From contig CAKOWZ010000011.1 in the NCBI GenBank assembly GCA_934129745.1, forward strand, positions 1,087 through 65,086: 64,000 nt of DNA, in the 5' to 3' direction. The stretch is from an uncultured Clostridia bacterium. GTDB lineage: Bacteria > Bacillota > Clostridia > TANB77 > CAG-508. The notes beneath the pieces were generated by a model. That model was not told where the DNA came from and did no database searches. It saw only the letters and a list, made by a program, of their open reading frames with translations. Position 1 is the first letter of the stretch, and the number at the start of each line of letters is the position of its first letter. A program made the position numbers and the translations under genes. This document shows, piece by piece, positions 15,239 through 16,487 of this stretch.

Positions 15239-15751
15239 ATGAGCCAAAGAAAAAATAAGAAAAATTTAGTTTTAGTTATTTTATTATTACTAGTTGTTGG
15301 TATGGCTGTTGGTTATGCAGCATTATCACAAGCTCTAGTTATTAATGGTACTGCAAATATTACTGCACAATGGAATATTGAATTTACTAAAATAGAAGCT
15401 GGAAATTTGATTGGAGCTGAACAAGCATCAGAACCTACATATACAGCTACTACAGCTACATTTAATGTTAATTTGTTATATCCAGGAGCAATAGCTGAAT
15501 ATAAAGTGACAGTTGAAAATAAAGGAAATATAAATGCTGTTTTAAAAAGTGTTGATGGTATAGATACAGCAAATAGTGCATCTCCAACTGAGGTGAAATT
15601 TTCAATTGATGCTGACACAAATGATACATTAAATGCAGGAAATTCAAAAATATATACTGTTAAAGTAGAATGGCCTGCTTCATCAGAAGTAGTTCCAGAA
15701 ACTATGTCAAAAACAGCTACTATAACATTGAATTATACACAAGCAGAATAA
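15239..15751 (+). CDS. small secreted TasA/camelysin-like protein with a SipW-cognate-type N-terminal signal anchor (subunit 1)
   Basis: A basic N-terminus and hydrophobic core are followed by GYAALSQALVINGTANITAQ (compare TasA ...GGTWAAFND...FASGTLDLSA). The mature region is Thr/Asn-rich and probably β-rich. A GGGAGG RBS lies upstream. Confidence 0.55.
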   Translation: MSQRKNKKNLVLVILLLLVVGMAVGYAALSQALVINGTANITAQWNIEFTKIEAGNLIGAEQASEPTYTATTATFNVNLLYPGAIAEYKVTVENKGNINAVLKSVDGIDTANSASPTEVKFSIDADTNDTLNAGNSKIYTVKVEWPASSEVVPETMSKTATITLNYTQAE

Positions 15752-15762
15752 TAAACTATAAT

Positions 15763-15800
15763 AAAAGTACTATTTGTTTAATTCAAAATAGTACTTTTAT
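15763..15800 (+). terminator. hairpin plus T-run after subunit 1
   Basis: Hairpin aaaagtactatttg / caaaatagtactttt followed by a T-run. Confidence 0.5.
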
Positions 15801-15959
15801 TTAATCAATAACATAAAAATTTTTGTTATTATAAATTATAAATATTATAAATTAATAAATTTTGTAAATTGATTATTATAAATTACTAAGATAATTATTA
15901 TAAATTACTAACAGGAAAGGAGTGTATAATTTTTATTATACATTGTAAATATTGATAAT

Positions 15960-16487
15960 ATGAAAAAAATATTAAAAAAAGATAAAATGAAAATAACAAC
16001 AATAATTACTATTGTTTTAATAATATTTTTATTAACTATTAGTACAGGATATTCTTATTTACATGCAAAATTAAAAATTGAAGGAAAATCAACAATTATT
16101 GCTCAACCAAAACAAGTAGGTGAATATCAACAAGGTCAAAGTACTTCATCATGGAGTATTGTTTCACAATCTAATTTAGAAAACGCTTTAACAAAAATCT
16201 ATGATATAAAAATAAACATTGTAAATAATGATGAAGATGCTAATTCTTGGGCTGTTGGAATGGATGTACCAACTTCATATGATGTAACTAAACAAAAAAT
16301 AAAATGTGCAAGTACAACACAATATGAAAATGGAAGATTAACATTATATTCAACAGATTGGAATGCACAAGTTGAAAAAGGGCAAATTTTGACATTAGAA
16401 TTTCAAATTGCAATAAATGGAGAAACAGAATTAAGTATAGATAATATAACATTTAATGGATTATTAACGCAAAATTTAAACAATTGA
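15960..16487 (+). CDS. paralogous small secreted TasA/camelysin-like protein (subunit 2)
   Basis: The signal anchor is followed by GYSYLHAKLKIEGKSTIIAQ, the same G-Y-x-x-L...I-x-G...I-x-A-Q register as subunit 1. A TATAAT -10 lies upstream, and 18-bp direct repeats are present in the promoter region. Confidence 0.55.
   Translation: MKKILKKDKMKITTIITIVLIIFLLTISTGYSYLHAKLKIEGKSTIIAQPKQVGEYQQGQSTSSWSIVSQSNLENALTKIYDIKINIVNNDEDANSWAVGMDVPTSYDVTKQKIKCASTTQYENGRLTLYSTDWNAQVEKGQILTLEFQIAINGETELSIDNITFNGLLTQNLNN

Follow-up and report, generated by a model that had tools for sequence, protein, structure and literature searches.

A conserved leader and strand shared by two secreted proteins may mark the substrates of an AbpX-like surface fiber cassette in an uncultured Clostridia bacterium

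Two small secreted proteins encoded one after the other in an uncultured Clostridia bacterium carry the same short motif directly behind an N-terminal hydrophobic segment, which raises the question of what this motif is for. Their genes, here P1 and P2, lie in a 64-kb stretch of contig CAKOWZ010000011.1 (positions 1,087 to 65,086; G+C content, 25.7%), which was analyzed whole and which we refer to as the window. They open a cassette of four plus-strand genes located 3' of priA-def-fmt. The initial annotation had likened the motif to TasA/CalY and placed there a SipW-cognate cleavage site and the donor strand of a two-subunit fiber. The explanation that we favor, with somewhat more confidence than doubt, is that the motif forms an N-terminal module common to the substrates of this cassette, which would build a surface fiber of the AbpX/TasA superfamily. 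The features on which the argument turns are as follows.

15239..15751, plus strand: P1, open reading frame (ORF) with ATG at 15239 and stop at 15751, 170 amino acids (aa); predicted major fiber subunit with an AbpX-like beta-sandwich.
15239..15319, plus strand: predicted P1 signal peptide, residues 1 to 27 (hydropathy, tripeptide variation, alignment with AbpX T-Y-A/Q, the slash here and below marking the cut).
15320..15373, plus strand: predicted N-terminal extension or donor strand of mature P1, A28-W45, A-L-S-Q-A-L-V-I-N-G-T-A-N-I-T-A-Q-W (AlphaFold2 [AF2] coil, alternating hydrophobic residues, AbpX alignment).
15374..15748, plus strand: P1 beta-sandwich core, residues 46 to 170, with a Y-P-G-A...V-E-N-x-G-x-I-x-A motif (AF2, hhalign).
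15960..16487, plus strand: P2, ORF of 175 aa; predicted minor, cap, or nucleator subunit.
16047..16106, plus strand: P2 copy of the motif, G30-Q49, G-Y-S/Y-L-H-A-K-L-K-I-E-G-K-S-T-I-I-A-Q (regular-expression match, hhalign of the P1 and P2 families).

Both motif peptides are present as first quoted: P1 reads ...VVGMAVGYAALSQALVINGTANITAQW and P2 reads ...LLTISTGYSYLHAKLKIEGKSTIIAQP, within the N termini MSQRKNKKN-LVLVILLLLVVGMAV-GYAALSQALVINGTANITAQW and MKKILKKDKMK-ITTIITIVLIIFLLTIST-GYSYLHAKLKIEGKSTIIAQP, respectively. The motif begins at 15311 (P1) and 16047 (P2), each time immediately behind 15 to 18 hydrophobic residues that follow a basic n-region, and the two copies, equally spaced from this hydrophobic stretch, share nine identities over a 20-residue overlap. 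In a six-frame translation of the window, the strict pattern GY..L...L.I.G...I.AQ occurs in the P1 and P2 ORFs only; about 3e-7 occurrences are expected from composition alone, for a pattern that was defined post hoc.

Conservation among orthologs, on which the first interpretation depended, is extensive. A word-indexed search returned 155 P1 homologs, each ~170 aa long and without any Pfam domain, and an exhaustive profile search raised the family to 7835 cluster representatives at an E value of <=1e-3, or 4050 at <=1e-10. G25, Y26, A27, Q31, L33, I35, G37, and W45 are invariant across 28 sequences reaching down to 48% identity, and 146 of the 150 best cluster representatives have the motif within their first 80 residues. 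We also assembled 84 related loci, 80 from a one-genome-per-species scan and 4 from contig look-ups. There, the motif occurs at both gene positions in Clostridia, in Mollicutes-like Bacilli, and in Saccharibacteria alike, the gene at the P2 position carrying it in 39 loci (for example, GYSLLSEQLTITGKGNI and GYALFSQQLSVAGNANK). These loci supplied 69 distinct P1-type and 36 distinct P2-type N termini, picked by a G-[YFWH] pattern, within which selection G and Y are both at 100%. Numbered from the predicted cut, these N termini have Leu or Ile at +6, Ile or Val at +8, and Gly at +10 in 94% of the P1 type and 86% of the P2 type.

The kinship between P1 and P2 is, at the level of sequence, visible only to profiles and limited to the leader. 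A comparison of the two family profiles gave a 97% probability (E value of ~1e-10 to 2e-11) confined to 37 to 40 N-terminal columns; the globular parts are unrelated, and direct BLASTP of P1 against P2 found nothing meaningful (E value of 0.15, in the wrong register). Within the shared segment, changes in one protein are matched in the other: at +2, Firmicutes have Leu and most Saccharibacteria Phe or Tyr in P1 and P2 alike, and +10 is Ser in both proteins of loci L048 and L071. Such changes, few and phylogenetically linked as they are, suggest a common partner, either a groove or the peptidase of the cassette.

The start of the motif has the form of a cleavage site. The -3/-1 rule for signal peptidase I predicts small residues at the first and third positions of the tripeptide that follows the hydrophobic stretch. 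Among the 146 representatives, this tripeptide is GYA in 113, GYS in 12, AYA in 11, GFA in 3, SYA in 3, AFA in 2, and GYG and AYS in 1 each, which limits the variation to [G/A/S]-[Y/F]-[A/S/G], with an aromatic residue at -2 between small ones at -3 and -1; in Saccharibacteria, the P1-type proteins carry A-Y-A. By hydropathy, the P1 leader comprises a basic n-region, a 15-residue h-region, and a c-region ending in G25-Y26-A27, and the h-region of P2 spans about 18 residues. TasA is cut after T-W-A to give a mature N terminus at A28, which the chain in PDB entry 8AUR bears out. Given this precedent and the exclusively small residues at -3 and -1, we place the predicted cut after A27 (A27/A28) in P1 and after S32 in P2. 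A SipW-like (archaeal/endoplasmic reticulum [ER]-type) peptidase is encoded two genes downstream, in keeping with the cut site for such an enzyme that had been proposed.

Judged by profile comparison, P1 is homologous to AbpX of Pyrodictium, and it is AbpX, not TasA/CalY, that is its demonstrable relative. The AbpX precursor, as given in the preprint supplement, reads ...LALTAIGLTYA/QWSETLSLSATISTGSLDVD..., and its structures are in the PDB as a fibril (9SJ2) and a self-complemented monomer (9RHP). In hhalign, the P1 family matched the single AbpX sequence at 76% and five AbpX homologs at 96.0% (E value of 4e-9, 147 columns). A 212-sequence P1 profile reached 96.5% against the AbpX homologs, with a reversed AbpX alignment as the control at 0.1%. 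The score persisted at 93.8% without the leader and at 94.4% for the core alone, without leader and strand, so the homology is independent of the hydrophobic leader.

The alignment also sets the two cut sites and strands in register, with P1 Y26-A27/A28-L29-S30-Q31-x-L33-x-I35-x-G37 opposite AbpX Y-A/Q1-W2-S3-E4-x-L6-x-L8-x-A10 and the pairs L29/W2, Q31/E4, L33/L6, I35/L8, G37/A10, and I41/I12. In the AbpX structure determined by cryo-electron microscopy (cryoEM), W2, L6, L8, A10, and I12 are buried in the groove of the neighboring subunit and E4 binds calcium (bioRxiv 10.64898/2026.01.04.697558). AbpX is cut at the position aligned with the P1 site: the fibril structure begins at Q1, and the mature mass was confirmed for a recombinant mature construct.

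The resemblance to TasA/CalY itself received no clear support. P1 and TasA compared at 46 to 61% in hhalign, centered on a PG...N.G motif, and the segment FASGTLDLSA, which had been quoted as the TasA counterpart, is not the donor strand and lies after the true one (residues 28 to 38, AFNDIKSKDAT).

The predicted structure of P1 is compatible with a strand that finds its place in a neighbor. The AF2 model, built from a 28-sequence alignment with a mean predicted local distance difference test (pLDDT) score of 88, has a helix at residues 4 to 29, coil at 30 to 46, and an eight-stranded sandwich at 47 to 168. Along the extension, hydrophobic positions alternate at +2, +6, +8, +10, +12, and +14 (L2, L6, I8, G10, A12, and I14), a pattern that, read from the sequence, is as expected for one face of a beta-strand. 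The first 16 residues of mature AbpX are likewise unstructured until they complement a neighbor (bioRxiv 10.64898/2026.01.04.697558). The proposal that the first strand is a donor strand, as in TasA, thus gains the in-register alignment with the AbpX donor strand; the complementation of one P1 by another we infer by analogy.

The other two genes of the cassette encode a processing machinery of the kind that accompanies AbpX.

16607..17788, plus strand: dedicated signal peptidase I, 393 aa (TIGR02228, hydropathy, invariant catalytic residues).
17805..18860, plus strand: DUF5305 protein, 351 aa, putative signal peptidase accessory subunit (PF17231, hydropathy).

By its profile matches, the 393-aa protein is an archaeal/ER-type signal peptidase I within the broader TIGR02228 family (88 bits; cut-off, 51.9); it scores 75.3 bits against the SipW equivalog model NF046067, below the cut-off of 190. 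At least 8 hydrophobic segments (residues 8 to 272) precede a catalytic domain (~272 to 376) of the Ser-His-Asp type, in which S286, H327, R328, D347, and D353 are invariant in 62 orthologs. The AbpX-linked peptidase of P. abyssi (380 aa) is collinear with it (99.3% over 309 columns in full-length hhalign; BLASTP E value of 1e-12), and the catalytic domain starts at residue 272 in both enzymes. The membrane domain alone, compared with the P. abyssi enzyme, gave 5.7% in hhalign, which is not significant. That domain (16607-17400, residues 1 to 265) matches nothing in Pfam, and its G88, N108, R123, P211, and W215 are invariant in the 62 orthologs, which hints at a peptidase function beyond anchoring.

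The DUF5305 protein (PF17231, 49.7 bits; cut-off, 29) has membrane helices at residues 17 to 35 and 245 to 263, the same number as described for the accessory proteins of AbpX loci. All mentions of DUF5305 in the literature searched concern donor-strand fibers. In the Tat-fimbriae (Tafi) of haloarchaea, processing of the pilin TafA by the signal peptidase TafD has been demonstrated, and the DUF5305 protein TafG has been proposed as a helper of TafD (PMC11821415, PMC12337348). The signal peptidase I linked to AbpX "in bacteria and archaea" has ten membrane helices, and most AbpX loci also encode AbpX-like minor subunits, tip proteins of variable structure, and a DUF5305 accessory protein (bioRxiv 10.64898/2026.01.04.697558). 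Judged by its gene content, the window cassette is this published AbpX-locus architecture.

In the related loci, one to four P1 copies come first, followed by a variable P2-type gene and the genes of a ~390-aa and a ~350-aa protein, in that order. Of the 84 loci, 72 combine P1, peptidase, and DUF5305, the 12 exceptions being 7 truncated contigs and 5 extra P1-type copies away from any cassette. These extra genes, with no peptidase/DUF5305 cassette within 6 kb (L028, L030, L032, L033, and L054; 315 to 381 aa in L032), may encode further substrates at separate genomic sites. The related loci come from uncultured Clostridia of gut and rumen (e.g., Clostridium sp. CAG:571), from Bacilli labeled Mollicutes, Tenericutes, Acholeplasmataceae, or Erysipelotrichaceae, and from >25 genomes of Candidatus Saccharibacteria. 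The saccharibacterial cassette (L036-L082; e.g., L036 6025-10321) often has two tandem P1-type genes, with A-Y-A and Phe or Tyr at +2. A literature search for papers tying TasA-like fibers to Saccharibacteria returned noise only.

P2 is built differently from P1 behind the shared leader and strand.

16206..16433, plus strand: CBM2-like beta-sandwich domain of P2, residues 83 to 158 (PF00553, below cut-off).

The window P2 scores 21.2 bits against PF00553 (E value of 3.7e-4; cut-off, 24 bits), and 11 of 20 P2-position genes match CBM_2, a cellulose-binding module, at an E value of <=1e-3, several at 62 to 86 bits and the best at 8.6e-27. Some P2-type genes have two CBM_2 copies or Big_2 or collagen-like spacers. 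Since P2 has only 2 close homologs, it appears to evolve fast. An AbpX-like subunit was ruled out for P2, whose family compared with AbpX at 9% in hhalign. The notion of two subunits, one major and one minor or nucleating, fits the TasA/TapA pair insofar as P2 shares only the leader and strand and adds a CBM2-like domain; what falls away is paralogy of the two, whose globular domains are unrelated. Having the strand and lacking the P1-type core, P2 could only donate. By analogy with what has been proposed for TapA, it would then sit at the fiber end that has a free groove; the TapA N terminus resembles the TasA donor strand (PMC9674648).

The module also precedes other domains within the P1 family itself, where 66 of the 150 best representatives exceed 250 aa. 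Ten long representatives were scanned: BspA-type leucine-rich repeats (LRR) were found in 7 (6 above the Pfam cut-off), DUF6273 in 2 (1 above), and Listeria-Bacteroides repeats in 1, all of the extra domains, Flg_new included, being C-terminal to the P1 domain. Their architecture suggests adhesin heads on a common module. Many P1-family members are 400 to 870 aa long with leader, strand, and P1 domain at the N terminus (P0139, P0197, P0235, P0240, P0245, and P0256).

Several results weigh against an AbpX-like fiber. The P1 profile, searched against PDB sequences, missed both AbpX and TasA and returned only FlgE at an E value of ~0.7; the homology to AbpX hence rests on profile-profile comparison with a shallow, five-sequence AbpX alignment. 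The generic PG...N.G motif of CARDB/DUF11 domains accounts for part of the core similarity, and P1 has weak CARDB/DUF11-like similarity in Pfam. The TasA/camelysin (Peptidase_M73) and SipW-cognate (TIGR04088-type) hidden Markov models (HMMs) of Pfam and NCBIfam match neither P1 nor P2 even at an E value of <=1, and the only matches to either protein in these collections are sub-threshold Ig-like and CBM2 ones. A Foldseek search of the PDB with the full-length P1 model gave no match at an E value of <=1e-3, TasA and AbpX (9SJ2 and 9RHP) being absent from the top 50; what it returned were generic Ig-like sandwiches at >=6e-3, an archaeal type IV filament at 0.012, and a PapG pilin domain. The leader helix in the model probably lowered the success of this search. 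A tandem model of two mature P1 copies, run in AF2 without an alignment as a surrogate for an oligomer, reached a pLDDT of 55; its motif segments, drawn as strands, are below 50, and we therefore dropped it as evidence. The leader helix of the AF2 model also takes in G25-A27 at its end, and the cassette has no sortase, SLH, or LPXTG genes for anchoring.

The strand itself departs from AbpX at two positions. Its amphipathic pattern and register are kept, but the reportedly conserved aromatic residue at +2 and acidic residue at +4 of AbpX homologs are Leu and Gln in P1. Across the P1 type, +4 is Gln in 88% and never Asp or Glu; in the P2 type, it is Glu in 11%. The AbpX calcium cluster D46/D48/E52 likewise has no acidic counterpart in the P1 alignment. 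With Gln at +4 and no acidic cluster, any P1 assembly is unlikely to be calcium triggered in the manner of AbpX.

Weighing these results, we consider the following course of events the most plausible. The P1 and P2 preproteins would be exported by Sec, and the cassette peptidase, probably with the DUF5305 protein, would cut them after the small-aromatic-small tripeptide [G/A]-Y-[A/S]. The new N terminus of P1, A-L-S-Q-x-L-x-I-x-G-x-A-x-I, would be an unstructured amphipathic extension that enters the sandwich of the next P1 as a beta-strand, and a fiber would grow by donor-strand complementation. P2, with its strand and CBM2-like domain and no P1 core, would donate to a P1 groove only, capping or nucleating one end as TapA does and adding a putative carbohydrate-binding head for anchoring or adhesion. 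The replacement of the calcium-binding Glu of AbpX by Gln at +4 would probably free assembly from the AbpX type of calcium trigger.

The same motif could instead be a sorting or recognition signal for the dedicated peptidase and nothing more, marking a small regulon of exported beta-sandwich, CBM2, and LRR proteins for cleavage by the cassette enzyme, with mature products that are monomeric, surface-bound or secreted, and glycan binding, and that form no fiber. We regard this as unlikely, if still worth serious consideration. It would account well for a motif that stands before unrelated globular domains (the P1 core, CBM2, and the LRR fusions), coevolution with the peptidase would explain the parallel changes in P1 and P2 equally well, and the tandem model lends an oligomer no support. 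Yet some 14 residues past the cut keep a strictly alternating hydrophobic pattern, far beyond what signal peptidase I needs; the segment is unstructured in the P1 monomer model; and P1 is homologous over its whole length to AbpX, in which the equivalent segment is a donor strand proven by cryoEM.

It is improbable, in our view, that the hydrophobic segment is an uncleaved signal anchor, which would leave P1 and P2 as type II membrane-tethered proteins and make the motif a juxtamembrane stalk or oligomerization element. A tether would explain how proteins of a cassette with no cell wall anchor are retained; AF2 draws residues 4 to 29, G-Y-A included, as one helix, and the P2 h-region has about 18 residues. 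However, the h-region of P1 has only 15, the invariant small-aromatic-small tripeptide is of a kind suited to cleavage, a dedicated and catalytically intact signal peptidase always adjoins, and the homolog AbpX is cut at the aligned position. Type IV pilins with a class III leader and prepilin peptidase, or sortase-joined pilins, which the short basic N terminus, the hydrophobic helix, and the Foldseek hit to the archaeal filament superficially recall, are effectively refuted and were rejected on sequence grounds, as P1 and P2 have neither a G/A-/-F/M-x-x-x-E motif before the hydrophobic stretch nor a C-terminal LPXTG and the conserved cassette has an S26 peptidase in place of a PilD/FlaK-type peptidase, ATPase, or sortase.

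Returning to a donor-strand fiber with P1 as the major subunit, we considered the expression signals around the two genes.

15178..15205, plus strand: candidate P1 promoter, TTGTTA, 16-nucleotide (nt) spacer, TAAAAT, with an upstream TG (consensus scan only, weak).
15760..15801, plus strand: perfect 16-bp hairpin, candidate terminator or attenuator (folding; inverted repeat I2).

The promoter candidate is weak because promoter-like sites in this AT-rich region are not enriched relative to shuffled sequence. P1 has a strong Shine-Dalgarno sequence, GGGAGG, 7 nt 5' of its start; P2 has none nearby. The AT-rich hairpin directly 3' of the P1 stop has a folding free energy of -15.1 kcal/mol (z score, -5.0), and 0 of 200 shuffles fold equally well. 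A consensus terminator scan had no match in the 26% GC cassette region; it misses this hairpin because it demands G-C pairs. As a candidate terminator or attenuator, the hairpin would set the ratio of major to minor subunit, and the strong Shine-Dalgarno sequence and hairpin of P1, set against the absence of a Shine-Dalgarno sequence for P2, would fit such a stoichiometry. The extremely AT-rich spacer of 208 nt between P1 and P2 (15800-15960) has a 24-nt direct repeat at 15823 and 15930 and, in addition, two copies of TTATTATAAATTACTA; these may provide regulatory sites for P2 and the downstream genes.

Upstream of the cassette, priA (11372-13620) is broken into two ORFs in different frames (junction, 12080-12100). 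Its Walker A stretch reads ACT-c-GGATCA-c-GGAAAAACAGAAGTGTAT, and deleting the two single extra C residues would restore T-G-S-G-K-T-E-V-Y. The gene is likewise broken up in related loci L001 and L002, which stem from two independent assemblies and where four fragments in different frames are called; either gene decay in this small-genome lineage or sequencing error would account for the split. The whole window has no tRNA genes and no Rfam families at the gathering threshold.

Taken together, the initial annotation was right in substance about a cut site for a SipW-like peptidase, an N-terminal strand, and a major and an accessory subunit. The system is most likely a divergent, unannotated branch of a known kind first described in 2022-2026, not a new kind; its most interesting aspects are the size of the family and its occurrence in Saccharibacteria and Mollicutes-like bacteria. 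A bolder proposition, which we hold only tentatively and consider rather doubtful, is that this branch is a very large, unannotated, and calcium-independent part of the AbpX/TasA superfamily, with thousands of 50%-identity clusters and no Pfam model. It would act as the principal appendage for adhesion in gut and rumen Clostridia with reduced genomes, in Mollicutes-like Bacilli, and in epibiotic Saccharibacteria of the candidate phyla radiation (CPR), with exchangeable heads (CBM2, BspA-type LRR, and Listeria-Bacteroides repeats) on one universal leader-plus-strand module, and in Saccharibacteria it would serve attachment to the host bacterium.

If the fiber reading is correct, small-aromatic-small followed by x-Φ-x-Q-x-L-x-I-x-G is a sequence handle that flags the substrates of the peptidase and fiber system, usable for unculturable organisms, Saccharibacteria and Mollicutes-like gut bacteria included, about whose surface structures next to nothing is known. 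The AbpX clade would reach new phyla and include a natural variant without the calcium-binding Glu. Modular adhesive fibers bearing CBM2 or LRR heads could play a part in attachment to plant fiber, mucus, or partner cells, and four "hypothetical protein" genes per genome would become a coherent, testable system.

Among known systems, chaperone-usher pili (Fim and Pap) share the principle that the N-terminal strand of a neighbor completes an incomplete Ig-like fold. They differ in their chaperone, usher, and outer membrane, all absent here, and in a tip adhesin that lacks a donor strand, whereas P2 is a strand without a P1-type acceptor domain. The Tafi system of haloarchaea and the DUF1102 clusters of Thermococcales and Archaeoglobales (TafA/E, TafD, and TafG) are alike in locus makeup, with a donor-strand fiber, a dedicated signal peptidase, DUF5305, and two or three small subunits of 150 to 200 aa; the haloarchaeal leaders are of the Tat type, however, and TafD, with four membrane helices, has its catalytic domain at the N terminus.

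TasA/TapA/SipW of Bacillus subtilis (PDB entries 8AUR and 5OF1) likewise sets the gene of an archaeal/ER-type signal peptidase beside those of its substrates and has a cut after aromatic-Ala (T-W-A/A-F-N-D in TasA, G-Y-A/A-L-S-Q in P1). Its donor strand is the first 11 mature residues of TasA, and TapA shares only the N-terminal strand with TasA, as P2 does with P1. Mature TasA, in contrast, has 234 aa with helical insertions and belongs to families whose HMMs P1 and P2 do not match, and SipW, unlike the window peptidase, has about two membrane helices and no DUF5305 partner in B. subtilis.

The closest comparison is with AbpX (P. abyssi; also Bacillota, Chloroflexota, and archaea), a member of the TasA superfamily. 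P1 differs from it in having Gln at +4 in place of the calcium-binding Glu, Leu (in Firmicutes) in place of an aromatic residue at +2, no counterpart of D46/D48/E52, less Asp plus Glu (11% versus ~15%), no cysteines, and no HMM-to-sequence match. The cassette differs in being without anchor or regulator genes and in its hosts, which are small-genome Clostridia of gut and rumen, Mollicutes-like Bacilli, and Saccharibacteria. Mature P1 would have ~143 aa, and AbpX has 163. Both have a leader ending in x-Y-A, an N-terminal extension that is unstructured and hydrophobic at +2, +6, +8, +10, and +12, a homologous beta-sandwich core (94 to 96% in hhalign), and an acidic pI (4.4). Both kinds of locus encode a dedicated multihelix signal peptidase of ~380 to 390 aa and a DUF5305 protein (the latter absent in P. 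abyssi), and the AbpX "tip" proteins resemble P2 in being an extra gene with the same strand and another head.

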